Part shown: in pieces, positions 3 through 51,862 of the stretch
Numbering within the stretch: the stretch's first letter is position 1
How the letters are laid out: each line of letters starts with the position of its first letter
NCBI GenBank assembly: GCA_003551675.1
Contig: PUNG01000152.1
Coordinates: forward strand, 5,377-69,376
DNA: 64,000 nucleotides
From: Thermoplasmata archaeon
Lineage (GTDB): Archaea; Thermoplasmatota; Thermoplasmata; Halarchaeoplasmatales; Halarchaeoplasmataceae
Reading direction: 5' to 3'
Position numbers and translations under genes: made by a program
Notes under the pieces: model-generated
The model's input: only the letters and a program-made list of their open reading frames with translations
Database searches by the model: none
What the model was told of the DNA's origin: nothing

Positions 3-1142
3 CCTGAAGAAGGTACTCATACCTACGAAGAAGGTGCTGAGGTGACTGTTACAGCAACATCTGACGCAGGCTGGTACTTCGACGGATGGACAGGAGATCA
101 TGAAGGGACGGAAGAAGAGATCACCATTACCATGGTCGATGACAAAGAAGTGACAGCAGTGTTTGAAGAAGATGTAGAGTATTACGAACTTACGTTAGAC
201 GTAGAAGGCGAAGGTGAAGTAAACATCGATCCTTATCAAGAGGAGTACGAAGAGGGTACCGAAGTTGAATTGACTGCTGTACCAGAAAAAGGTCACGTGT
301 TCGTGGAATGGACCGGTGATGCGGAAGGAACGGAGGAAGAGATCACCATCACCATGGACGGCAACAAGGAGATAACAGCGGTGTTCGAAGAGGAAGAGTA
401 TCATGAGCTCACAGTAAACGTAGAAGGTGAAGGCGAAGTAGAAATTGAGCCGGATCAAGATGAATACGAAGAGGGAACTGAAGTCGAATTGACAGCCTCA
501 CCGGAAGAGGACTGGGTATTTCTAGAATGGATCGGAGATAAAACCAGTACAGACACGACTATACAGGTCACAATGGACTCTGACAAGTCCATAACGGCAC
601 ACTTCGAGGAGTTAGGAGAAGCATATTTTGAAGTGAGTATAGTATCTCCTGAAGACGGTGAGGAATTTGAAAAAGGTGAAGAGATAGTCGTGGACTACGA
701 AGTAATGAATACTGGTGTGGTTACAGGCGAACAGGACATCGAATTTTACGTCGGCGGTGAGTTAGTAGACACAGAAGAAGGAGTCGAGATCGAACCCGAC
801 GGAACTTACGAAGGTCAATTTACTTGGGAGGTCGAAGAAGACGGTGCCGTCGAACTAGAGGTTCACAGTTCGGATGAAGGTGAAGTAGATTCGATCTCGT
901 TGACGATCTCTTCCATGGATGATCCGGAGGATGACGACTTCCCCTGGTGGCTGATCTTGGTCGTTCTCATAGTGCTAGCCTTAGTCGCTGTGATCTTCTT
1001 TGTGACTACGACTAAATCAGAGGAAGATGAAGAAGCAAACGAAAAAGTAGATGAGGATGATGAACCTGCAGATATCCCTATGAGCTCTACCGAGAAGAAA
1101 ACTTTCGTACATCCCGCCAAAAAAAGAAAAAATAGAAAGTAA
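3..1142 (+). CDS. Cell-surface repeat protein, 3' portion (5'-truncated by window edge); Listeria-Bacteroides-type ~90-aa repeats, CARDB-like domain, C-terminal TM anchor plus acidic tail
   Basis: The reading frame is open from nt 3 (PEEGTHTYEEGAEVTVTATSDAGWYFDGWTGD...). About 4 repeats of the unit E.EG.GEV.I.P..EYEEGTEVELTA.PE.GW.F.EWTGD...T...I.ITMD..K.ITA.FEE are paralogous to repeats in the 16546..19575 protein. The C-terminus has a hydrophobic helix WWLILVVLIVLALVAVIFFV followed by an acidic/K-rich tail. Confidence 0.75.
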   Translation, partial: PEEGTHTYEEGAEVTVTATSDAGWYFDGWTGDHEGTEEEITITMVDDKEVTAVFEEDVEYYELTLDVEGEGEVNIDPYQEEYEEGTEVELTAVPEKGHVFVEWTGDAEGTEEEITITMDGNKEITAVFEEEEYHELTVNVEGEGEVEIEPDQDEYEEGTEVELTASPEEDWVFLEWIGDKTSTDTTIQVTMDSDKSITAHFEELGEAYFEVSIVSPEDGEEFEKGEEIVVDYEVMNTGVVTGEQDIEFYVGGELVDTEEGVEIEPDGTYEGQFTWEVEEDGAVELEVHSSDEGEVDSISLTISSMDDPEDDDFPWWLILVVLIVLALVAVIFFVTTTKSEEDEEANEKVDEDDEPADIPMSSTEKKTFVHPAKKRKNRK

Positions 1143-8399: not shown

Positions 8400-8879
8400 A
8401 TGCTCATGGATCATCTAGAGGACCTGTACGGAAAGCTTTCTGATCTGTACTCCAAAGAAGAGTTCTATCAGGAGATCGAAAAAAGGAAGGAAGAGTTCAA
8501 CGATCTCTTGGACGAAGAGGCTTTAGCGTACCTTATCGTAGCCGAAGAGGATAGGAACGAAGAGGCTTTGGACGATATAGAGAGCGTTGGACCTGGAGAC
8601 GAATGTACAGTAGAAGGTGAGGTAGTTGATCTAGGGGTTCTGCGGACTTTTGAGAACAAAAACGGACAAGGTAGAGTCAGGAACGTACGTATCGACGACG
8701 GTACCGGTTCCATAAAAGTGGTTTTCTGGAACGAAGAGACCGATAGGATAGAAGACGAGTTCGAGACCGGAACTGTCATAAGAGTGGCCAACGGCTACGT
8801 ACAGGATAGAGGGTACGGAAAGCAGATATCTGCGGGAAAATGGGGCGAAGTCAAAGTGATAGATAGGAAAAAGGATTAA
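8400..8879 (+). CDS. OB-fold ssDNA-binding (RPA/SSB-like) protein with N-terminal helical extension
   Basis: The C-terminal ~90 aa resemble an RPA-type OB fold (RVRNVRIDDGTGSIKVVFWNEETD...GTVIRVANGYV). Confidence 0.45.
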   Translation: MLMDHLEDLYGKLSDLYSKEEFYQEIEKRKEEFNDLLDEEALAYLIVAEEDRNEEALDDIESVGPGDECTVEGEVVDLGVLRTFENKNGQGRVRNVRIDDGTGSIKVVFWNEETDRIEDEFETGTVIRVANGYVQDRGYGKQISAGKWGEVKVIDRKKD

Positions 8880-8903
8880 TATCTTTATCTCTATCCCCCT
8901 TCG

Positions 8904-9122
8904 ATGGCAGAACAAGATAGAAAGGAAGGATTTATCGAAGAATTGGTCGAATGTCATTTCTGTGCAGGATTCATCCCCGACGAGTTCAAATGTATCTTGT
9001 GCGGGGAGGATCTTTTGGATACGGAGATGACCACCCGAACGAAAACGGTTTGTTCTAACTGTCGTACCGATGTGAACGAAGATGCGGAGGAATGCTTAAA
9101 CTGTGGTACCGCCTTCACCTAA
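8904..9122 (+). CDS. Small zinc-ribbon protein
   Basis: Four CxxC pairs (CHFCAG...CILCGE...CSNCRTD...CLNCGT). Confidence 0.4.
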   Translation: MAEQDRKEGFIEELVECHFCAGFIPDEFKCILCGEDLLDTEMTTRTKTVCSNCRTDVNEDAEECLNCGTAFT

Positions 9123-9176
9123 GATCTATCCGGAAACAACAAATTTCTTAAAATACATACAAGGTCGCGAAGAAAC

Positions 9177-9827
9177 ATGGATGATAAAGAGCTCACCTAT
9201 GAAGATGTCTTAGACGTTTTGGAGAGAGAGAAAGGATCCGAACAGCCGTGCGCTTTACCGGATGATTTTTACCGCCGCCTAAGGGAATACATACAAAGGT
9301 TGGAAGAGAGGAGCGAAGAGATCGGTGTAGCTCCCAGCGATAAAAGGGAAAGGAGGATGCAAAGACAGCATGAAAAGGTGAAACAGATCGCTAATCATTT
9401 TTTTAAAGAGCGTCAGAAGAAGATAATTTTAGCCGCTTATCACAGATCATTAGGCCAGAGAGTAAATACTGATAATCTGATAGATCGTGAACAACAGCTT
9501 TTGAACGAAGTTTCTAGTCTTTTGAAAGACTTGAAGAACCTCGTCTTCTTAGGAGAGTACAAACGCAAAACTAAAGATGAAGAAAAGAAAAAGGTCGAAG
9601 AGGTCAGGGAGGAAAAAGATGTGGAAGAAGAACCGTCGGAAAAACCCTCTTTAGAAAAAAAAGTAGAACCCCATGAAGAACTGCTTGTACACATAATCGA
9701 TGACGTGCCTCCCTTCGTGGACGTAAACACCTCTTACGATCTAAAGAAAGAAGATGTAGTGACGCTTCATGAAGAAATAGCTAACGTTCTGATAGAGAGG
9801 GGTAAAGCTAGGAAGGTAAAGCTGTGA
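9177..9827 (+). CDS. GINS-like (Gins51/Gins15-type) replication protein, tentative
   Basis: The N-terminal helical pattern YEDVLDVLEREKGSEQPCALPDDFYRRLREYIQRL resembles the archaeal Gins51 A-domain. The protein has a K/E-rich linker and lies next to the OB-fold and Zn-ribbon genes. Confidence 0.35.
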   Translation: MDDKELTYEDVLDVLEREKGSEQPCALPDDFYRRLREYIQRLEERSEEIGVAPSDKRERRMQRQHEKVKQIANHFFKERQKKIILAAYHRSLGQRVNTDNLIDREQQLLNEVSSLLKDLKNLVFLGEYKRKTKDEEKKKVEEVREEKDVEEEPSEKPSLEKKVEPHEELLVHIIDDVPPFVDVNTSYDLKKEDVVTLHEEIANVLIERGKARKVKL

Positions 9828-9843
9828 AAAGTATCTGTGAAGA

Positions 9844-10320
9844 TCAGAAAGCCGAGTCGTAATCTCCTTCGTCTATGAGTTTTTGGACTTCCCTAGGCTC
9901 TTTTTCATCCACGGTGATACCCATGGATACGCAGGTGCCTATGACCTCTTTGGTCTTCTGTTTCAAGTTTTTTCCGAGGAGATCATCTTCTTTCATCTCC
10001 GCGACCTCTTTAGCTTGTTTTATTGTTATGTTTCCCGCTTTACTGGTCTTAGGATTACCGCTCCCCTTTTCGATACCCGCCTTTTCTAAAACTAGGGCGG
10101 ATGTGGGAGGGGTACCTACTTCGATCTCGAAGTCACCAGATTCTGTATCGACCGTGAGTTTTATGGGGACTTTCATCCCTTCAAACTTGCCGGTCTTCTC
10201 GTTTATCGCGTTGACGATTTTCATTATGTCGACTCCGAGAGGTCCCAATTCAGGACCCAGCGGAGGTCCCGCGCTGGCTTCGCCGCCATCAATCAATGCT
10301 TCTATCGTTTCAGTTGCCAT
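9844..10320 (-). CDS. rpl11: 50S ribosomal protein L11 (uL11)
   Basis: uL11 signature SAGPPLGPELGPLGV; 158 aa. Confidence 0.9.
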   Translation of the reverse strand: MATETIEALIDGGEASAGPPLGPELGPLGVDIMKIVNAINEKTGKFEGMKVPIKLTVDTESGDFEIEVGTPPTSALVLEKAGIEKGSGNPKTSKAGNITIKQAKEVAEMKEDDLLGKNLKQKTKEVIGTCVSMGITVDEKEPREVQKLIDEGDYDSAF

Positions 10321-10346: not shown

Positions 10347-11252
10347 TCATCTATCTTTTTCCAGGACTCTGACATGATCGCCTCTAACGGTAACGGGGAT
10401 GGGCACGGTGGCTTCGAACAGTTCCACGGTGATCTCGTCGTTATCTTTATCTATCTGGGCGACCCTTGCCTTCTCCCCCTTGAAAGGTCCTGCGGATAAC
10501 TCTACTATGTCCCCTTCCGCTATACCTTCCACTGCAAGTTTTGGAGCTAGAAAATGTTCTATCTCTTCGATACTCGTTTCGCCTCCTATGACCCCTTTGG
10601 CTTTCCTTGTACCGTCGGTGATCTCGTCGACCAGGGTTGGGTTCATTGCTTCTATAAATACGTATCCTCTGACTGGTTTTGGAGCTAGGATGGAAAAAAC
10701 GCCCATATCTTTATCTTTCGCCCAGGATGCTATGTAATCCGCGACGTTCTTCTCCTGGTTGATCTGAGTTTTCATGGCTATAACGGCCGGTCTCGCAGTA
10801 GTTACTAAAGTCAAAGAATCGGATAACATCTTATCTTTAGATGAAGTCGCATCGATTATGATCTCTGCTTTGTCTCCATAACTAGCTCCCTCTGGAGCAC
10901 GGACACCGATGGGCAACATAAATTCGTCATTTCCGTCAACTTTGATGGTCTTGTTGAATGAATCCGAAGGTTCTGACAATTTATCTCCGTCCCATAAGGT
11001 GATCTGCCACGGTATCGGGTTTTCCTCGTCCGAACTGTACAGTAGATGTATCCTCAAATCGATGCTGATCTCCGAAGACGAGGTGTTGACCAATTTGACA
11101 TTATAAGTGGTTTTTTCTCTAGTAGGGATGGATTTTTTGTAAGGTTCACACTTTAAAATGATTTCTTTCTCTTCCTTTTCCTCCTCTTCCTCGGGAAATT
11201 TTTCTTCTTCCTCTGTGATTTCGTCCTCGGTAAAGTCGTCTAACAGTCCCAT
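10347..11252 (-). CDS. spt5: Transcription elongation factor Spt5 (NusG family) with unusual ~150-aa N-terminal extension
   Basis: C-terminal NGN segment (VIAMKTQINQEKNVADYIA...RGYVFIEAMNPTLV) plus KOW segment (GDIVELSAGPFKGEKARVAQID). The N-terminal 150 aa are acidic (EEEEKFPEEEEEKEEKE) and followed by a beta-rich segment. Confidence 0.8.
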   Translation of the reverse strand: MGLLDDFTEDEITEEEEKFPEEEEEKEEKEIILKCEPYKKSIPTREKTTYNVKLVNTSSSEISIDLRIHLLYSSDEENPIPWQITLWDGDKLSEPSDSFNKTIKVDGNDEFMLPIGVRAPEGASYGDKAEIIIDATSSKDKMLSDSLTLVTTARPAVIAMKTQINQEKNVADYIASWAKDKDMGVFSILAPKPVRGYVFIEAMNPTLVDEITDGTRKAKGVIGGETSIEEIEHFLAPKLAVEGIAEGDIVELSAGPFKGEKARVAQIDKDNDEITVELFEATVPIPVTVRGDHVRVLEKDR

Positions 11253-11286
11253 GTTTTCACCTCGAATAGAATCCCTGATCTCATAA

Positions 11287-11532
11287 TCATCCCATCATGA
11301 AATAATCTGGTAAATTATTCCACAGCCAAGTAAGCAGAAAACCGACTGAGCCTATGAGCAGCAGTCCTCCTACGACTATGAGCAGGGTTTTTTTGAACTC
11401 TTCTCGATCTGGCTTTCTAGCCATCTTGAGAATCCTACCGTATTTGCCTTTTCCTATCTTTCCTGCTTTTTCTTCGATTTTATCTTGTATATTCCAGGAC
11501 CCTTCAATAATGTCCATCTGTTTTCCCCTCAT
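11287..11532 (-). CDS. secE: Preprotein translocase subunit SecE (Sec61 gamma)
   Basis: 81 aa with the motif KPDREEFKKTLLIVVGGLLLIGSVGFLLTWL and a single C-terminal TM. The ftsZ-secE-spt5-rpl11 order is conserved in archaea. Confidence 0.75.
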   Translation of the reverse strand: MRGKQMDIIEGSWNIQDKIEEKAGKIGKGKYGRILKMARKPDREEFKKTLLIVVGGLLLIGSVGFLLTWLWNNLPDYFMMG

Positions 11533-12653
11533 GCAATTGTTTTGATCTCATCTTTATTCATCGCTATCTCTTTTCCAAAGATCTGTTTAGACTTCACTCC
11601 TGTGATGACCACCATAACTTTCAGAGATTTTTCTTGGGTGGGCTCAACCGCGGCACCCCAGATGATCTTAGCATCCTTTCCTATCTTATTCTCTACGATC
11701 TTAGCGACTTCTTCGGCCTCTGATACCGTCATATCGCTACCGCCTACGACGTTGATCAACGCAGCGTTAGCACCACGTATATCCACTTCGAGCAACGGCG
11801 AATTGATGGCGTCTTCTATGGCCTTTTCCGCTCTATTTTCCGAGTCGTCTTCTCCCATGCCTATCATGGCCACTCCCGCTCCTTCCATGACCGTCTTCAG
11901 ATCGTTAAAATCAAGATTGACCAGGCCTGGTTTAGTTACTAGTTCCGTCAAACCTTTGATAGAGCGGGTGAGAACTTCATCGGCTACTTTGAATGCTTTG
12001 TTTAAAGACAAACGCGGACACAGTTCCAGCAGTTTATCGTTCGGGATGGTGATAACGGTGTCTGCCACGTTTTTAAGTCGGGAGAGACCCCATTCTGCGT
12101 TTTCCATCCTGGACTTTCCTTCGGCTTCGAAAGGAGTGGTACAAACTGCAACGGTCAAAGCACCTTCTTTTTTTGCCATCTCGGCCACAACGGGTGCTCC
12201 CCCAGTACCGGTACCTCCTCCCAGTCCACACGTAACGAATACCAGGTCGCTTCCTTCTAAGATATCCTTCAATTTGTCTCTCGCTTCTTCGGTCGCTTCC
12301 ATACCTATCTCGGGTCGAGCCCCTGCACCTAGTCCTCCGGTTTTACGTCGTCCCAATAGCACCTTTCTTTGCGCAAGAACGGTCAAAAGATGCTGAGCAT
12401 CGGTATTAGATGCTATAAGTTCCGCACCTTGTAATCCCTCTTCTGAGATCCGTTCTACAGTGTTGCATCCTGCTCCACCAACCCCGACGATCTTTATGTT
12501 CGTCTTCAGACCTTGAAGTACCTCTCTCAGCTCTTCGTCGGCGGCGGTTAGGTTCTCGCCTCTCTGATCTTTGGACCCCGTCCTTCCTGATTTGCTTCGT
12601 TCAGTTTTAGACAGAGCCTCTTCAACAATCGATTCCATCAATACACACTCCAT
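11529..12653 (-). CDS. ftsZ: Cell division protein FtsZ
   Basis: Tubulin/FtsZ signature GGGTGTGGAPVVAEMAKK; IASNTDAQHL; N-terminal VGVGGAGCN. Confidence 0.9.
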   Translation of the reverse strand: MECVLMESIVEEALSKTERSKSGRTGSKDQRGENLTAADEELREVLQGLKTNIKIVGVGGAGCNTVERISEEGLQGAELIASNTDAQHLLTVLAQRKVLLGRRKTGGLGAGARPEIGMEATEEARDKLKDILEGSDLVFVTCGLGGGTGTGGAPVVAEMAKKEGALTVAVCTTPFEAEGKSRMENAEWGLSRLKNVADTVITIPNDKLLELCPRLSLNKAFKVADEVLTRSIKGLTELVTKPGLVNLDFNDLKTVMEGAGVAMIGMGEDDSENRAEKAIEDAINSPLLEVDIRGANAALINVVGGSDMTVSEAEEVAKIVENKIGKDAKIIWGAAVEPTQEKSLKVMVVITGVKSKQIFGKEIAMNKDEIKTIA

Positions 12654-16545: not shown

Positions 16546-19500
16546 ATGTATATCTATATAGTCTATAAAAGAAGGATTTGTATGAGGGAAAAGAGATTGG
16601 TCTTCGTCGTAAGTTGCCTACTTATAACCGGCGGGATGGTAGTTGTTGTCGGGGGCGAGGCGATAGAAGGGAACGAAAGTGTTGGTGGAGTGACAGGGGA
16701 AAATGAACCGCAGGCTGTTCAAGAGATCCACGACTGGTACGATCTCGATGATGTGCGGGACGATCTAGACGGCGATTATATTCTGATGAACGATTTGGAT
16801 GAAAATACCGACGGTCATGACGAATACAACAACCAGAAAGAGAATTATAAAATCAGAGAAGATGCTGGATATGAAGAAGCTTGGGACGATGGCGATACGA
16901 TAGATATACCCTTTGATGAAGATGATTATGATTCAGTTTTATCAGTTGAAGATGAAGACGGAAACTCTATAGATCATACTGTAGACCATCCCACGATCAC
17001 AATAGATGAAGACACGGGGGAACGATATATTTATGTAAACTACGAAGATGCTGTTGTGGGCTGGGAGCCGATAGGTGATGATGATGACGGATTTTCAGGT
17101 ACTTTCGACGGAGATGATTATGAAATAAGGGACCTCTACACCGACCGATTAGGCACAGATAACGTTGGCCTGTTTGGGTATATCGATGAAGGTGGAGAAG
17201 TTCGCAACGTTGGTGCTGTCGATACGGATGTGAGGGGATTCATTGGTGTAGGCGGGCTCATAGGATTTATCTATGAAGGCACGATCGAAAACTCATACGT
17301 CACGGGTGATGTGAGTGGAGACTCGCATGTTGGTGGGCTCGTTGGATGGAACGCGGGGGAAGGCACGGTGGCGAACTCGTATGCTACGGGAGATGTGAGT
17401 GGAGAAGGTGGTATAGGTGGGCTCGTTGGAACGAACATAGGCACGGTGGCGAACTCGTATGCAACTGGAGACGTGAGAGGGGGAGGTGGTATAGGCGGGC
17501 TCGTTGGATCGAACTCTGGCCTGGTGGCGAACTCGTATGCTACTGGTGTGGTGAGCGGGGGAGACAGTGTAGGCGGGCTCGTTGGTGTGAACCATGATAC
17601 GGTGTCGAACTCGTATGCTACTGGTGTGGTGAGTGGGGGAGATGGTATAGGCGGGCTCGTTGGAATGAACATAGGCACGGTGTCAAACTCGTATGCTATA
17701 GGAGATGTGAGTGGAGACGAGCTTGTAGGCGGGCTCGCAGGACTTAACTATAAAGGCACGATCGAAAACTCGTATGCAACTGGAGGGGTGAGCGGAGATG
17801 AGGACATAGGTGGGCTCGTTGGATTGAAATTTGAAGGCAGCACGGTTGAGAACTCGTTCTGGGATATCGAAACATCAGGACAAGATGATTCCAACGGCGG
17901 TACAGGGAAGACCACCGTTGAGATGAAGGATGCTGTGACCTACACAGATACAAGTACTGAAGGATTGAACGAGCCGTGGGATTTCGTAGGCGATCCGAAC
18001 GACGACGAAGGTGATGAGGATATATGGGACATCGACGATAGTACTAACGACGGATATCCATTCTTGACTTGGTCAGCAAGGGAACTTGCGATAAACATCG
18101 AAGGCAAAGGTAATACCGAACCTTTGGAAGGTACTCACACCTATGTAAAAGGTACTGAGGTAACTGTTACAGCAACGCCTGATGAGGGCTGGTACTTTGA
18201 CGGTTGGACTGGCGATCACGAAAATGCCAACAGGGAGATAACGATAATCATAGATGACAATAAAATCCTGACGGCTAATTTTGATGAGATAAGAGAAGGA
18301 GAACAAGTTTTAACGATAAATGTTGATGGTGAAGGCACGACGGAGCCGAAGCCAGGAGATCACATCTATGACAAGGGTGAAGAAGTCACGATTAAAGGGA
18401 TTCCGGAAGAAGGCTGGTACTTTGTCGAATGGACCGGCGATCACGAAGGTACAGAAGACAAGCTCACTATAACTATGGACGAGGATAAAGAAGTAACAGC
18501 TCATTTTGCCATACACGAATACACCTTGACGGTGAACGTCGAAGGAGAAGGAACTACCGATCCTGAAGAAGGTATTCATAGTTATGAAAAAGGAGATATC
18601 GTGACGGTTGAAGCTACGCCCGCAGAGGACTGGATTTTTGTAGAGTGGATAGGAGACGAGGTAGGAACGGACACGACCATAGAGATAAATATGTACGAAA
18701 ACAAGAGTATAACGGCTGTCTTCGAAGAGATCCAAACATACGAGTTGACGGTAGATGTAGAGGGTGAAGGCACCGTAGAAGTTGAGCCTGAGCGGGAAGA
18801 GTACGAAGAGGGCACGGAAGTCATTTTAACAGCGGTACCTGACGAAGGTTGGTACTTCGAAGAGTGGACAGAAGACTATGAAAGTACTGAAGACGAACTC
18901 ACCATAATCATGGACAGTAACAAAGAAATCACGGCATGGTTCGAAGAGGAAGTAAAGTATCACGAGCTAGAGGTGAACATAGACGGTGAAGGCACCGTAG
19001 AAGTTGAGCCCGAGCAGGACGAGTACGAAGCGGGCACGGAAGTCACTTTAACAGCGGTACCTGCCGAAGGTTGGTACTTCAAAGAGTGGTCTGGTGACGA
19101 AACAAGTACAGAAGTGGAAATCACCGTCACCATGGACGAAGACAAAAACATCACCGCACATTTCGAGAAGTTAGCTCCTGCGGAATTCGAATTCTCTGCC
19201 CTAACAATAGAGCCGGGAGAACCGGAGGTGGGCGAAGAAATCAAGATAAACATAGAAGTGACCAACATGGGTGGGCTAGAAGGAGAATACACCGTAGAAT
19301 TTTACATGAACCATGCTCTCATCGACGAAGTAGATGTAGAGCTGGAGGCCGGTGAAACAAAAACGGTTTCAACGACCTACGAGATCGAAGAGGCTGGGGA
19401 TTATCACATAGAAGCGGAAGGTTTCACTCGGATTATCGATGTCGAAGAAGTCACCACCGACGGTTGGTTGATCGCCGCTTTGATCCTTTCGATCATCGCT

Positions 19501-19575
19501 CTACTCGTGTTCGTCTGGATGGGGATGGAGAGTGACGGGAAGACAGTTGATGCTCCCGAGGAGGACGAAGACTAA
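16546..19575 (+). CDS. Large cell-surface protein: signal peptide, GLUG-motif repeats, about 7 Listeria-Bacteroides-type repeats, CARDB-like domain, C-terminal TM anchor
   Basis: N-terminal signal/TM segment (LVFVVSCLLITGGMVVVVGG) and an acidic region. About 8 repeats of GGLVG.N.GTV.NSYATGDVSG are GLUG-like. About 7 repeats carry GWYF.EWTGD...ITA.F. A CARDB-like segment reads EPGEPEVGEEIKINIEVTNMGGLEGEYTVEFYMN. The C-terminal TM is WLIAALILSIIALLVFVWMG, followed by an acidic tail. Confidence 0.85.
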   Translation: MYIYIVYKRRICMREKRLVFVVSCLLITGGMVVVVGGEAIEGNESVGGVTGENEPQAVQEIHDWYDLDDVRDDLDGDYILMNDLDENTDGHDEYNNQKENYKIREDAGYEEAWDDGDTIDIPFDEDDYDSVLSVEDEDGNSIDHTVDHPTITIDEDTGERYIYVNYEDAVVGWEPIGDDDDGFSGTFDGDDYEIRDLYTDRLGTDNVGLFGYIDEGGEVRNVGAVDTDVRGFIGVGGLIGFIYEGTIENSYVTGDVSGDSHVGGLVGWNAGEGTVANSYATGDVSGEGGIGGLVGTNIGTVANSYATGDVRGGGGIGGLVGSNSGLVANSYATGVVSGGDSVGGLVGVNHDTVSNSYATGVVSGGDGIGGLVGMNIGTVSNSYAIGDVSGDELVGGLAGLNYKGTIENSYATGGVSGDEDIGGLVGLKFEGSTVENSFWDIETSGQDDSNGGTGKTTVEMKDAVTYTDTSTEGLNEPWDFVGDPNDDEGDEDIWDIDDSTNDGYPFLTWSARELAINIEGKGNTEPLEGTHTYVKGTEVTVTATPDEGWYFDGWTGDHENANREITIIIDDNKILTANFDEIREGEQVLTINVDGEGTTEPKPGDHIYDKGEEVTIKGIPEEGWYFVEWTGDHEGTEDKLTITMDEDKEVTAHFAIHEYTLTVNVEGEGTTDPEEGIHSYEKGDIVTVEATPAEDWIFVEWIGDEVGTDTTIEINMYENKSITAVFEEIQTYELTVDVEGEGTVEVEPEREEYEEGTEVILTAVPDEGWYFEEWTEDYESTEDELTIIMDSNKEITAWFEEEVKYHELEVNIDGEGTVEVEPEQDEYEAGTEVTLTAVPAEGWYFKEWSGDETSTEVEITVTMDEDKNITAHFEKLAPAEFEFSALTIEPGEPEVGEEIKINIEVTNMGGLEGEYTVEFYMNHALIDEVDVELEAGETKTVSTTYEIEEAGDYHIEAEGFTRIIDVEEVTTDGWLIAALILSIIALLVFVWMGMESDGKTVDAPEEDED
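17290..17830 (+). repeat. ~60-bp tandem nucleotide repeats (about 8 units) encoding GLUG motifs
   Basis: Recurring units such as ggtataggcgggctcgttgga...ggcacggtggcgaactcgtatgctactggag...gtgagtgg occur with high inter-unit identity. Confidence 0.7.
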
Positions 19576-21751: not shown

Positions 21752-23077
21752 TTATCTTCGCTTGTATCTTAACACCTCCTCCAAAGTCGGTTCTAGAGGC
21801 TCTCTAGGGTCCCAGTCCACCACGATGGCTCCGTGGGTCCAGAGCTTGTCTAACAGATGCTGCCTTTCCGCGTGGTGCAGCTTTTCGGCCAGACCTTCAT
21901 AATTATCCGTGAGATCCATCTCGATCTTGAGGGGGTCTGGAGAGATGACCATCACGTCGTATTCTCTCATACAAAGATCGATCATGGTCTCGCTGAATTT
22001 TGAAACCGTCAACGGAGAGATAAAGATAATCATGCTCTTTCTCGGAAAAAGATCCTCTAGGATCCATTTTACTCCCTCCATCCCCCAGCCGCCGCCCTCC
22101 TCGAATTTCGTAAGGTTCGCGATTATACGATGATAGTGATTTTTACCGGTACTAGGGTACAGCCAATTAAGATAACTGCCCGAAACTATCAATCCCACAC
22201 GGTGTCTAGATGAAAGAAGAACTGAGGCTAGACTTGCGGTTGCATCTATGGACGCCTTCATGGTATTATGTTCCATGGTTCCTATCATACCTTCTTGGTA
22301 GCCATCTACAACCAATATCACGTCTCCGCTTTTTTCGCCTTCGTATGCGTTGGTCTTGGGGTCCAAGTATCTAGCCGTGGCCTTCCAATTGATGTCTTTT
22401 AAGCCGTCTCCCGGATGGTATTCGCGGAGAGCAAAAAATTCACTACCGAAGCCTATGTTTTTAGACTTAGTATCTCCTAACCAGTGCTTGGTGTAGCTTG
22501 GAGCAATGCTCACTTTCTCCATATCTTCGGTTTTAGGTAATACTTGAAGATCTATCTTTTTTCTTGGCTCCAATACCCTGGAAAAAAGACAAAGACCGTC
22601 TCTGTATCTCAACTTTATGGGCCCCACTTCAAAATTTCCTGTGACTGGACATTTTATCTTATAATCGAACTCGAAGACATCATTTGCTTTTATCGTACAG
22701 ATGTGGTGGTTGGTTCCCTCCGAAACTTCGATCCGCGGTGGAAGAACATCATGCACCTCCAAAAAGCGTATCTCGTCTCCCTTGTTTTTGATCTTTATCT
22801 TCAGTCGGAGTTCGCCTTCAACGTGAACTTCCCTCGCTTCATGCCGGGAACCCCTTTCCACTTCGATATGAAGGTTTTTAGGAGGTAGTGACCCCACGGC
22901 CACGACTAAAATTGCTACTGAACAGATGGTGCCTATGAAAAAGATCCAACTACCTAAAAGATTGCCGAATATGATCCCCGCAACCGCCAAGAGCACTATG
23001 TAAAGGAACGGCCTCCCTTTTTTCGTCTCTCCATCTACCCCCATCTGTCGATCCTCTCCATGATCTCTGATAACCAT
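21752..23077 (-). CDS. DUF58-family (vWA-like) protein (module gene C, copy 2)
   Basis: SEFFALREYHPGDGLKDINWKATARYLDPKTNAYEGEKSGDVILVVDG; about 60% identical to copy 1. Confidence 0.7.
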   Translation of the reverse strand: MVIRDHGEDRQMGVDGETKKGRPFLYIVLLAVAGIIFGNLLGSWIFFIGTICSVAILVVAVGSLPPKNLHIEVERGSRHEAREVHVEGELRLKIKIKNKGDEIRFLEVHDVLPPRIEVSEGTNHHICTIKANDVFEFDYKIKCPVTGNFEVGPIKLRYRDGLCLFSRVLEPRKKIDLQVLPKTEDMEKVSIAPSYTKHWLGDTKSKNIGFGSEFFALREYHPGDGLKDINWKATARYLDPKTNAYEGEKSGDVILVVDGYQEGMIGTMEHNTMKASIDATASLASVLLSSRHRVGLIVSGSYLNWLYPSTGKNHYHRIIANLTKFEEGGGWGMEGVKWILEDLFPRKSMIIFISPLTVSKFSETMIDLCMREYDVMVISPDPLKIEMDLTDNYEGLAEKLHHAERQHLLDKLWTHGAIVVDWDPREPLEPTLEEVLRYKRR

Positions 23078-23577
23078 TCTTCGTATTCCTCGTCTTCCCT
23101 AACATCCTCTTCTGCATCGTCCTCGTCGGCTAGTACGAAATCAGCCAGGGTGTCGTCCTTCACCACGTCTCTAAATTTATCAGGGTACCGGATAAGTTTA
23201 TTCACTTCGTCTCTGGATAGATTTCTTTCAACTTGCAGTTTGCTTAAAAAAATATCTTTTATCTTTCTTTCTAAAAGACCGCGGCTGACCCGCATCCCTT
23301 TAGACGCTCTTTTGACCAGGTTGGAAGTGTTCCCCAATCTAATATCTATCTCCTCTTTCAGAACTTCTTCGTGTTTCCAGATATCCTCGTCTTCCGTAAT
23401 TTCTCTCGCCCAGAGAACCAGGTTCATCCCCATGAGGAACAATATGAACATGGCTGAGAAATATCGTAGTAGTCCTTCCGAACCGACGGTAAAAACGGTT
23501 AAAACTAGGATGAAAAAACCGCTCAAGATATAGTATGATCTGTTCTTTTTATGGCCGAGACTATTCACGGCGTTCAT
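23035..23577 (-). CDS. Module gene B, copy 2 (2-TM plus cytoplasmic helical domain)
   Basis: Paralogue of 14635..15258. Confidence 0.5.
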   Translation of the reverse strand: MNAVNSLGHKKNRSYYILSGFFILVLTVFTVGSEGLLRYFSAMFILFLMGMNLVLWAREITEDEDIWKHEEVLKEEIDIRLGNTSNLVKRASKGMRVSRGLLERKIKDIFLSKLQVERNLSRDEVNKLIRYPDKFRDVVKDDTLADFVLADEDDAEEDVREDEEYEEWLSEIMERIDRWG

Positions 23578-49287: not shown

Positions 49288-49938
49288 TCACATATCTAGG
49301 ACATCAAAGAGAGCGGACAGATCCTTTTCTTCTATGACCCAATCCGCAGATCTTTTTACCTTTTCGTCGTCCGGATTGAATGCTATACCCAATCCAGCCC
49401 TTTCAAGCATGGGCGCATCGATATGACTGTTTCCTATGGCTACGCATCGTTCTTTTTTTATGCCTTCTTCGGAGAGCAGTTTTTCGAGGATATCCCCTTT
49501 GTTTTTCAAAGGTACGTCTACGATCCCACGGGAGCTCAACCTTCCTTCATGATCTTTTATATCGTTGGCAAATATCCTGTCAAAGTATTCTCCGCCTACG
49601 TGTTCCGCCAAAGGCTTCAAACCGCCGCTGATTATCGCCGTGTTGTAATTCTCTTTTAGAGAAGGTATCACTTTATGAAAACCTTTCATCACAGGTGCTG
49701 TTTTCAATATGTCTATGATATCTTGTCTCGATATGTTAGGTTCGGCGGACTTCCAAAGTTCGATATCTCTTCTGATGAATTCACCATCGTCTATATCGCC
49801 TCTTTCGTACGCTTTTAAAGAATCTTCGTTATCGACTCCGAATCTATCGTGGATCCATGCCCATGAACTTTTCGCATCGATGAGCACACCATCCATATCG
49901 AATACGATGATCTTCCAATCTGAACTCATTTTATCCAT
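49288..49938 (-). CDS. HAD-superfamily phosphatase (PSP-like)
   Basis: Motif I IVFDMDGVLID and motif IV GNSHIDAPML. Confidence 0.75.
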   Translation of the reverse strand: MDKMSSDWKIIVFDMDGVLIDAKSSWAWIHDRFGVDNEDSLKAYERGDIDDGEFIRRDIELWKSAEPNISRQDIIDILKTAPVMKGFHKVIPSLKENYNTAIISGGLKPLAEHVGGEYFDRIFANDIKDHEGRLSSRGIVDVPLKNKGDILEKLLSEEGIKKERCVAIGNSHIDAPMLERAGLGIAFNPDDEKVKRSADWVIEEKDLSALFDVLDM

Positions 49939-51862
49939 TTATCTCGTCCATGCTCTTTTTGTACTTCTTTAGATTTTCAAAACTTTTTTTGACGTCTCCT
50001 CTTTTTAGAGCTTTGTTCGTTTCTTTTAGATATTTCACGGGTTTCGATACGTCAGCACCCTTTATTTTTGCCTCTTTCAATTTGTTTTTTGCACCTTTTA
50101 TCTCATCTCTCAAGATCGCTGGCAGCTCATCGGATAATTTATCCTCCGCTTGTAAAAGGAATTTTCTAGATATCTGTGGATTTTTTTGTTTACTCCTCTC
50201 TTTCGCTTTTTTCAGCAGTTTTTCGGCTTCAGGAAACTTAAAACCATGTTCTTTTACGTCTTTTATTATACCTTCTAGTACGGCGATATCTTTTTTCACC
50301 TCTTCCATGACCTCTTTTTTATCCTCGGCTTTTTCTTTTCGTTTCTCCTCTATCTTTTCTTTCGCCTTTTCTATGGACTCAGAAACTTTTTCATAATCCT
50401 CTTGGTCTCTATACTTTTTTATGTCTTCTATTATGGTGCCTCTCTCTTTTTGTGGCAGTCGTCTCTCTATATTTTTTATCTTTTCGTTTATCTGGTTTTC
50501 GAGTTTTTTCTGGAAAAATATCTTACACTCATTTAATGAATTCAAGGCATCCTCGTATTCGTTATCCTTTGTCTTTTTCACAGCTTGGTTGATCAGTTCT
50601 TTCCCATCTTTAACGTCGACATCGAAGTTTTTAGCGGTTTTCAGAAGCGCCGTCATCTCGGGTATCTTCTGTTGTATTTTCTTGAAGTGATCCTTCTTAT
50701 CTTGATCTTTGAAAACCAATTTTTTTTCTAAAGTCTTCTTCATCTCTGCGATATTTTCATCTAATAGATCTTTTGCTTCAGTGAAATCACCATGTTCCGC
50801 TTTGTCCATGGCCTCATCTATTTTATTTGAATATTCGCTGGTGTCTACGCCTTTAAGACTGAGTTTTTCCAGATGTGATTTAGCTTCGGCGGCGTCTTCG
50901 GCAACATCGTACAAACTTTCTGACATCTTTTGCGCACTCATAAGGCTGTGGTAGCTCGCCAGTATCCGGTTTTTTTTCTTTTCTTTTTCAGCTTTTTTCA
51001 GCATCTTTTTGATCCGGTGGGTTTTGATGATCTTCTTCTCTAACTCCGAAAGTATCTCTTGAATCGATTTTTTCTTCTCTTTCATCACCTTTGAGAATTC
51101 GTGTTTTTTCGTCAGTCCCATATCCTCGACGACTTCTTCTACGTCCCTTTCGACTTCTTTCGCCTTTTTCGCCGCTATGGCATACTCGCCTATTTCACAA
51201 CCCCTGTATACCTGATCCAACCAACCTTCGATCTCAGATGCATCAGTCTTTTGGGAGATCCATTCAAGGTAATTCTTGCATCTTTCCAACCTTTCCTTTA
51301 TCTCTTCAGCGTGACTTATGGTGATCTTCAATCGTTCCATCAGTGTATTTTCTCTTTCAGGATCTAATTCGTCGGTCTTTTTTACTTCTTCGAGATCCTC
51401 TTTTATCTCCTCCAATCCTATTCCAAATCGGTCCAACTTCCCTATCCTTTTTTCAAAAGATTCGATGCTGTCTTCTTCCTCTACTTCGTCTATTTCGACC
51501 TCATCCTCCTCTTCCTCTGCTTCGAACACAACGCCACACTCAGGGCATTTAGAAGCGTCATCCGAGACCTCGCTCTCGCATATGGGGCACTCAAAGGTGA
51601 AGAAACTTTCATCTTCGGACTCTTCTAAGATATCCTCTTCAGACAGCCCCAACTCTTCGAGATCACCTATCAGTTCTTCTTCGTCCTCCTCGTCGAGTAC
51701 CAGACCCATGACTTTTTCTATGGATTCCTCTGATACTTCTTCATCTAGATCTATACCTTCCTCGAAAAGGTTTAGATCAGCTTTGCACACAGGGCATCTA
51801 TCTTTGCCCTGGGGTACCTCTGAATCGCAGACTGGACATGGTCTTTTAGAATCTTTTGCCAA
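49931..51862 (-). CDS. Double zinc-ribbon, acidic, long coiled-coil protein of unknown function
   Basis: N-terminal CPVCDSE...CPVCKAD and CPICESE...CPECGV zinc ribbons, D/E-rich linkers and about 450 aa of K/E-rich predicted coiled coil. Confidence 0.5.
   Translation of the reverse strand: MAKDSKRPCPVCDSEVPQGKDRCPVCKADLNLFEEGIDLDEEVSEESIEKVMGLVLDEEDEEELIGDLEELGLSEEDILEESEDESFFTFECPICESEVSDDASKCPECGVVFEAEEEEDEVEIDEVEEEDSIESFEKRIGKLDRFGIGLEEIKEDLEEVKKTDELDPERENTLMERLKITISHAEEIKERLERCKNYLEWISQKTDASEIEGWLDQVYRGCEIGEYAIAAKKAKEVERDVEEVVEDMGLTKKHEFSKVMKEKKKSIQEILSELEKKIIKTHRIKKMLKKAEKEKKKNRILASYHSLMSAQKMSESLYDVAEDAAEAKSHLEKLSLKGVDTSEYSNKIDEAMDKAEHGDFTEAKDLLDENIAEMKKTLEKKLVFKDQDKKDHFKKIQQKIPEMTALLKTAKNFDVDVKDGKELINQAVKKTKDNEYEDALNSLNECKIFFQKKLENQINEKIKNIERRLPQKERGTIIEDIKKYRDQEDYEKVSESIEKAKEKIEEKRKEKAEDKKEVMEEVKKDIAVLEGIIKDVKEHGFKFPEAEKLLKKAKERSKQKNPQISRKFLLQAEDKLSDELPAILRDEIKGAKNKLKEAKIKGADVSKPVKYLKETNKALKRGDVKKSFENLKKYKKSMDEING

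Follow-up and report, generated by a model that had tools for sequence, protein, structure and literature searches.

An Ig-like domain N-terminal to NGN and KOW in the Spt5 of Thermoplasmata archaea

Spt5/NusG is, to our knowledge, the only transcription factor common to all domains of life. Reviews describe archaeal Spt5 as an NGN domain plus one KOW domain (PMC7289017). The window analyzed here, a 64-kb stretch of DNA from a soda-lake Thermoplasmata archaeon, contains an ORF whose 301-aa product departs from this description. It had been predicted from the DNA sequence to be a Spt5 with an unusual N-terminal extension of about 150 residues, consisting of an acidic stretch and a beta-rich domain. 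The locus raises three questions: whether the extension belongs to the protein, what it consists of, and what it may contribute to a transcription factor that binds the polymerase clamp.

The ORF encodes the genuine Spt5 orthologue

Family models were used to assign the C-terminal part of the protein. Pfam Spt5-NGN (PF03439) matches residues 158-235 with E = 6.9e-17 and Pfam KOW (PF00467) matches residues 246-277 with E = 1.8e-8, the order predicted for the region behind the extension. The NCBIfam Spt5 equivalog model TIGR00405 reaches 165.9 bits (its cutoff is 69.95) and covers residues 159-300 only. Solved archaeal Spt5 chains have 147-152 aa and align without gaps only to about residues 157-300, which leaves approximately 156 residues ahead of the alignable part and bears out the predicted size of the extension. 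The protein shares with canonical archaeal Spt5 (TIGR00405; PDB 3p8b, 9bct, and 4zn1) the NGN domain and the single KOW domain, at 41-49% identity over 143-146 residues. The KOW block has 46-49% identity to the Spt5 of P. furiosus and T. kodakarensis and is the most conserved block of the protein, with a mean top-residue frequency of 0.88 in an alignment of 186 sequences. Canonical archaeal Spt5 differs in lacking the 156 N-terminal residues, and the extension is found in no solved Spt5 structure and lies outside the Pfam and NCBIfam family models.

The residues that connect Spt5 to its partners were located by alignment with the M. jannaschii protein, in which the RNA polymerase clamp coiled-coil pocket (Ala4, Tyr42, and Leu44) and the Spt4-contact Glu46 have been assigned (PMC2896526). 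The alignment is gapless with an offset of +155. The clamp pocket corresponds to A159, Y197, and F199, and the Spt4-contact glutamate corresponds to E201. Among the homologues of the window protein, A159, Y197, and E201 do not vary (92 homologues for A159 and Y197). As these residues are retained, NGN most likely keeps its canonical roles and its binding to Spt4.

The gene neighborhood agrees with this assignment. SecE (Pfam SecE, E = 5e-5) and L11 genes flank spt5 on the same strand, in the secE-spt5-rpl11 order of canonical archaeal Spt5 that is also present in relatives (Table 1). The secE product has 81 aa counted from the first ATG vs 76 aa in metagenome gene calls. These results show that the ORF encodes the single, genuine Spt5 orthologue of this organism, as had been proposed.

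Table 1. Coordinates of spt5, its parts, and its neighbors in the window
Feature	Coordinates	Strand	Remarks
spt5, complete CDS	10347..11252	-	301 aa plus stop; ORF list, TIGR00405, metagenome gene calls
N-terminal motif MGLLDDF, residues 1-7	11232..11252	-	small residue, two hydrophobic residues, then acidic
Low-complexity linker, residues 8-29	11166..11231	-	disordered, pLDDT below 50
Ig-like beta-sandwich, residues 30-156	10785..11165	-	divergent E-set domain, FixG_C/NEW3/CARDB type
NGN domain, residues 157-235	10548..10784	-	Pfam PF03439
NGN-KOW linker and KOW domain, residues 236-301	10350..10547	-	Pfam PF00467
Shine-Dalgarno-like GAGGTGA	11257..11263	-	5 nt 5' of the spt5 ATG; read from the sequence
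secE	11287..11532	-	upstream neighbor of spt5; Pfam SecE
ftsZ (FtsZ)	11529..12653	-	gene row ftsZ-secE-spt5-rpl11
rpl11 (L11)	9844..10320	-	downstream neighbor of spt5; Pfam Ribosomal_L11_N and Ribosomal_L11

A shorter protein that starts at the NGN domain would leave no extension to explain. The original prediction allowed for such a mis-called start, or for a small upstream ORF fused to spt5 (a fusion that annotation or assembly could produce), and added that no internal methionine closely precedes the NGN domain. This last statement needs correction, as M160 is located in NGN strand 1, and start-type codons occur at the NGN boundary near this position in 51 of 77 relatives. M160 is, however, a valine in most homologues. 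Inspection of the window sequence found no Shine-Dalgarno-like motif 5' of M160, and a Shine-Dalgarno 5-mer accompanies the internal codon in only 1 of the 77 relatives, while the annotated ATG at 11252 follows the strong GAGGTGA. The 156 upstream residues are conserved as protein over 186 sequences, with an invariant W82 (186/186) and a nearly invariant P120 (185/186), and they fold with pLDDT above 90. In the scored GTDB species genomes (78 of 80), an open frame of at least 275 codons leads up to the stop, except at one locus truncated by a contig end. Three independent soda-lake sediment metagenome contigs also carry the gene, and each was called with an identical 301-aa product. The retrieved orthologues do not start at the NGN domain behind upstream noise, and the Shine-Dalgarno sequence, protein-level conservation, open frame, and fold effectively refute a mis-called start, which we consider next to impossible.

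Several arrangements around spt5 vary. The window rpl11 is not followed by rpl1-rpl10-rpl12. Beyond rpl11 (8400..10320), the opposite strand carries a GINS51-like gene (9177..9827, +), a double zinc-ribbon ORF (8904..9122, +), and an OB-fold gene (8400..8879, +). In an Aciduliprofundum-type locus (L085, 3670..8337) the row ftsZ-secE-spt5-L11-L1-L10-P1 is intact. One Thermoplasmata MAG (L079) has ftsZ, secE, and spt5 in one stop-free frame of 786 codons, and its translation is rich in Pro, Ala, Gly, and Arg. High GC content is the probable cause of the single frame, and a true fusion is less likely.

Three parts of the N-terminal extension

The extension occupies residues 1-156 and has three parts: the MGLLDDF motif, a disordered linker of 22 aa, and an Ig-like sandwich of 127 aa. 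AlphaFold2 modeling with a 92-sequence alignment gave an all-beta structure for residues 30-156 with pLDDT 91-96, and values below 50 for residues 1-27. The Ig-like domain modeled by itself had a pLDDT of 91.6 and a pTM of 0.83. A beta-sandwich had been predicted at this place and the model agrees, with the correction that it begins at about residue 30 instead of 40 and extends to 156. The acidic stretch, which has 61% Asp/Glu, was likewise correctly called, but it spans residues 8-29 and not 1-40.

The first seven residues are a candidate tethered linear motif, predicted with pLDDT below 50. Columns 2-5 of this motif are G/S, L/V/M, L/F, and D/E in most of the 186 homologues. The linker behind it is far more variable. 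The 186-sequence alignment has a gap fraction of 0.19 and many insertions in this segment, and linker length and composition change by lineage. The 61% Asp/Glu is a value for the window lineage; elsewhere linkers have 3-15% Asp/Glu and are rich in proline and alanine or in lysine, proline, and alanine, and the Asp/Glu fraction between lineages runs from 0.00 to 0.62. Methanomassiliicoccaceae and gut Methanomassiliicoccales-type lineages have neither motif nor linker, so both parts are dispensable in some lineages.

Acidity is also a general property of the proteins encoded in the window. They contain 16.6% Asp plus Glu vs 12.3% Lys plus Arg, and 7 of 52 ORFs, for example 132..1142, 9177..9827, 23035..23577, and 49931..51709, have 20-residue segments with at least 55% Asp/Glu. 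This window-wide acidity fits a salt-adapted soda-lake organism. Because the linker Asp/Glu content varies by lineage and the window proteome is acidic, the poly-acidic linker is a lineage-specific compositional feature and not a conserved property. Short hydrophobic-acidic tails directly before the NGN domain were also seen in Thermoplasmatota Spt5 proteins that have no Ig-like domain, namely P0455 and P0456 (186 aa) and P0430 (176 aa), with the sequences MARF[LI]EEEEEE... and ...ADLFPEDEELEEEDK. Since these Ig-less proteins carry it, the tail may predate the Ig-like domain or be unconnected with it.

The Ig-like domain is joined tightly to the Spt5 core. In the AlphaFold2 model its last strand (residues 144-154) runs into the NGN strand at 156-162 with no linker between them, and in the 186-sequence alignment the junction (residues 146-166) is free of insertions and all but free of gaps. 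The domain ends at residue 156, the position to which Met1 of M. jannaschii Spt5 aligns, three residues before A159. Domain identity among the close and distant relatives retrieved ranges from 23 to 70%. An A-P-x-G-A-x-Y-G-D motif at residues 119-127 is strongly conserved. This motif and a conserved EW pair resemble residues that determine the fold in CARDB/NEW3-type domains more than they resemble an obvious functional site.

Comparison with known families places the domain as a sub-threshold, distant relative of FixG_C/NEW3/CARDB repeats. The window domain is below the Pfam gathering threshold, with FixG_C scores of 16.7-18.7 bits against a cutoff of 25.6, and a sub-threshold FixG_C match recurs in 20 of 25 family members at E ≤ 0.1 (best E = 3e-6). 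A search with a profile of the domain returned 1119 matches at E ≤ 1e-3, and the top matches outside Spt5 were proteins with 6-7 FixG_C and 4-6 NPCBM_assoc repeats each. The predicted sandwich superposes on solved members of the FixG_C, NPCBM_assoc, and CARDB types. It has the fold of the FixG_C, NPCBM_assoc (NEW3), and CARDB repeats of large multi-repeat proteins and a weak but consistent sequence similarity to them that includes a P-x-G-x-x-Y-G-D type motif. Unlike these repeats, the Spt5 domain is single-copy, scores below the Pfam thresholds, and is fused to a cytoplasmic transcription factor. The Spt5 N-terminus is acidic and disordered and has no signal peptide-like features, which again differs from the multi-repeat proteins. 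An Ig-like repeat known mainly from large multi-repeat proteins is thus reused in the cytoplasmic transcription machinery.

The domain profile HMM was run against all ORFs of the window and matched nothing besides Spt5. A 1009-aa ORF at 16546..19575 (+), annotated with CARDB and Flg_new_2 on an identical contig, gave no match to the profile.

Distribution and annotation of the extended Spt5

The distribution of the extension was determined in protein and genome collections. A search over 5.8 billion proteins retrieved 1725 homologues. The best 120 of these are almost all 283-319 aa long with 43-100% identity, and most of them cover the extension. Named entries among these 120 are Spt5 of Thermoplasmata, Thermoplasmatota, Candidatus Natronoplasma, or Candidatus Saliniplasma, with the one exception of a MAG labeled Candidatus Aenigmatarchaeota. 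Across the protein searches and cluster look-ups, the only names returned were Aciduliprofundum, generic Thermoplasmata or Thermoplasmatota MAGs, the Natronoplasma/Saliniplasma MAGs, and the Aenigmatarchaeota-labeled MAG; Thermoplasma, Picrophilus, Ferroplasma, and Cuniculiplasma of the Thermoplasmatales were not among these names. The GTDB species genomes gave 565 relatives, and all of the best 80 of the 565 have the extended Spt5. Motif filtering scored 78 of them, and in the two that the filter missed the matches span query residues 1-300 or 1-301. The extension was conserved as protein in every close and distant relative retrieved.

Long Spt5 proteins occur in many uncultured Thermoplasmata lineages and in Methanomassiliicoccales, including the genus Methanomassiliicoccus. 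They also occur in the cultured Aciduliprofundum boonei T469 and Aciduliprofundum sp. MAR08-339, where the protein has 277 aa and the domain starts at residue 1; hhalign relates the Aciduliprofundum domain to that of the window with 95% probability (E = 3.7e-8). The description of the extension as unusual holds against textbook archaeal Spt5. It does not hold across much of the class Thermoplasmata, A. boonei included, where the extension is the norm. At least two groups of related Thermoplasmata-type Spt5 share the KOW signature but have no Ig-like domain. The first, a cluster of 422 member sequences named Candidatus Thermoplasmatota, consists of 186-aa proteins in which MARF[LI]EEEEEE leads directly into NGN. 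The second is represented by P0430, whose secE-spt5-rpl11 locus has no room for the domain. Because related Spt5 proteins of the same KOW type are without it, the Ig-like domain is, as judged from these sequence comparisons, a lineage-specific acquisition and not a phylum-wide trait. A proteomics supplement for Cuniculiplasma lists NusG and does not give its length.

These proteins are already in public databases as Spt5 or NusG, and full-text literature searches found no published description of the Ig-like domain. Family models overlook the domain or cut it short, and so do some annotations. Some database records (P0359, 190 aa, and P0387, 195 aa) have the start codon called inside the Ig-like domain, and an older A. 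boonei record (P0437, 277 aa) is named 'ribosomal protein L24, putative'. Errors of start and name in this family follow from the unmodeled domain. A structured third domain that is kept across much of Thermoplasmata, cultured and methanogenic gut-associated members included, makes archaeal Spt5 more modular than has been assumed.

Proposed role of the Ig-like domain

Our preferred reading, held with somewhat better than even confidence, is that of a genuine Spt5 with an inherited three-part extension whose Ig-like domain provides an extra protein contact beside the clamp tip. NGN and KOW would work as in other archaea, with the clamp closed, processivity raised, and KOW coupled to downstream partners. 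The indel-free junction and the end of the domain three residues before the pocket residue A159 suggest a fixed pose beside the clamp-tip interface; we infer where the domain sits with respect to the polymerase only from this sequence adjacency to Ala159. In such a pose the domain would most likely be an accessory protein-contact module that offers an additional protein-protein surface. Candidate partners are the polymerase clamp, the stalk, or a lineage-specific factor, and the tethered N-terminal motif could form a second, flexible contact. As the conserved residues look like fold determinants, a mainly stabilizing role is a possible alternative to a contact module.

An extra globular domain confined to one clade has a precedent in the NusG of Aquifex aeolicus and Thermotoga maritima (PDB 1m1g, 1npp, 2xhc, and 2lq8), which raises the idea that the Spt5 domain is likewise a nucleic-acid-binding accessory. 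The bacterial domain carries positive charge, and nucleic-acid binding has been ascribed to it (PMC2995049). It is inserted in an NGN loop, whereas the window Spt5 has neither an NGN-loop insertion nor a positively charged extra domain. In Spt5 the extra domain precedes NGN, and its net charge is below zero in 160 of 170 homologues (median charge -6, pI 4.8), even where NGN-KOW is neutral, and a Foldseek comparison of the full model with 1m1g, 1npp, and 2xhc gave TM scores of only 0.16-0.22, so the arrangements do not superpose. Direct nucleic-acid binding by a domain that is so consistently acidic is unlikely, and a bacterial-type accessory role is improbable.

The acidity could also be read as a likeness to eukaryotic Spt5. 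The acidic region of eukaryotic Spt5 attaches at the N-terminus of NGN. The window extension attaches at the same point and includes a disordered, charged segment of 61% Asp/Glu, the Ig-like domain is itself acidic in most lineages, and the Ig-less relatives also begin with an acidic tail. These features could point to an analogue or homologue of the eukaryotic region that captures basic chromatin proteins during transcription, and a likeness to the eukaryotic acidic N-terminus was part of the original prediction. The likeness proved weak. The charged segment is a property of the window lineage; linkers fall to 3-15% Asp/Glu in other lineages and disappear in Methanomassiliicoccaceae, Pfam Spt5_N has no match at E ≤ 1, and similar acidic runs occur in the 7 of 52 ORFs counted above in a compositionally acidic genome. 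Eukaryotic Spt5 also has no Ig-like domain at this position. We therefore regard a eukaryotic-type function as very improbable. A further idea is that the Ig-like domain took the place of Spt4 and stabilizes NGN in a lineage that lost it. NGN stabilization is the main role of Spt4 in vitro (PMC2896526), and a zinc-ribbon ORF scan and a tblastn search with an approximate M. jannaschii query found no convincing Spt4 in the 64-kb window, although spt4 is not expected at this locus. The invariance of E201, the equivalent of Glu46, across the family argues that Spt4 is still bound. Replacement of Spt4 is accordingly the least credible of these functional alternatives.

The location of the proposed module suggests one further hypothesis. 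The genes for TFE-alpha and TFE-beta are reported to be missing in the class Thermoplasmata (PMC4495717, PMC7289017), and the sites of TFE and Spt4/5 on the clamp coiled-coil overlap (PMC7289017). A Thermoplasmata domain that adjoins the clamp pocket might be linked to this reported loss, with the Ig-like domain and the N-terminal motif together forming a Thermoplasmata-specific clamp-factor adaptation. The domain would then occupy or use the neighboring clamp or stalk surface that TFE contacts in other archaea, and through it Spt5 would either take an added part in controlling the clamp during initiation or promoter escape or recruit a lineage-specific partner. This hypothesis is speculative and we hold it at low probability. 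In either case, a domain next to the polymerase clamp contact offers a concrete handle on clamp control in a clade reported to be without TFE.

Two departures from the standard architecture were seen within the family. In one lineage (L051, a 359-aa ORF, and P0273, 363 aa) the Ig-like domain has an insertion of approximately 45 residues that separates the EW motif from the APxGAxYGD motif, contains many charged residues, and looks helical. In P0135 (406 aa) the Ig-like domain is followed by a fragment of ribosomal protein L1 and then by NGN-KOW, and this record is probably derived from a chimeric or misassembled contig.
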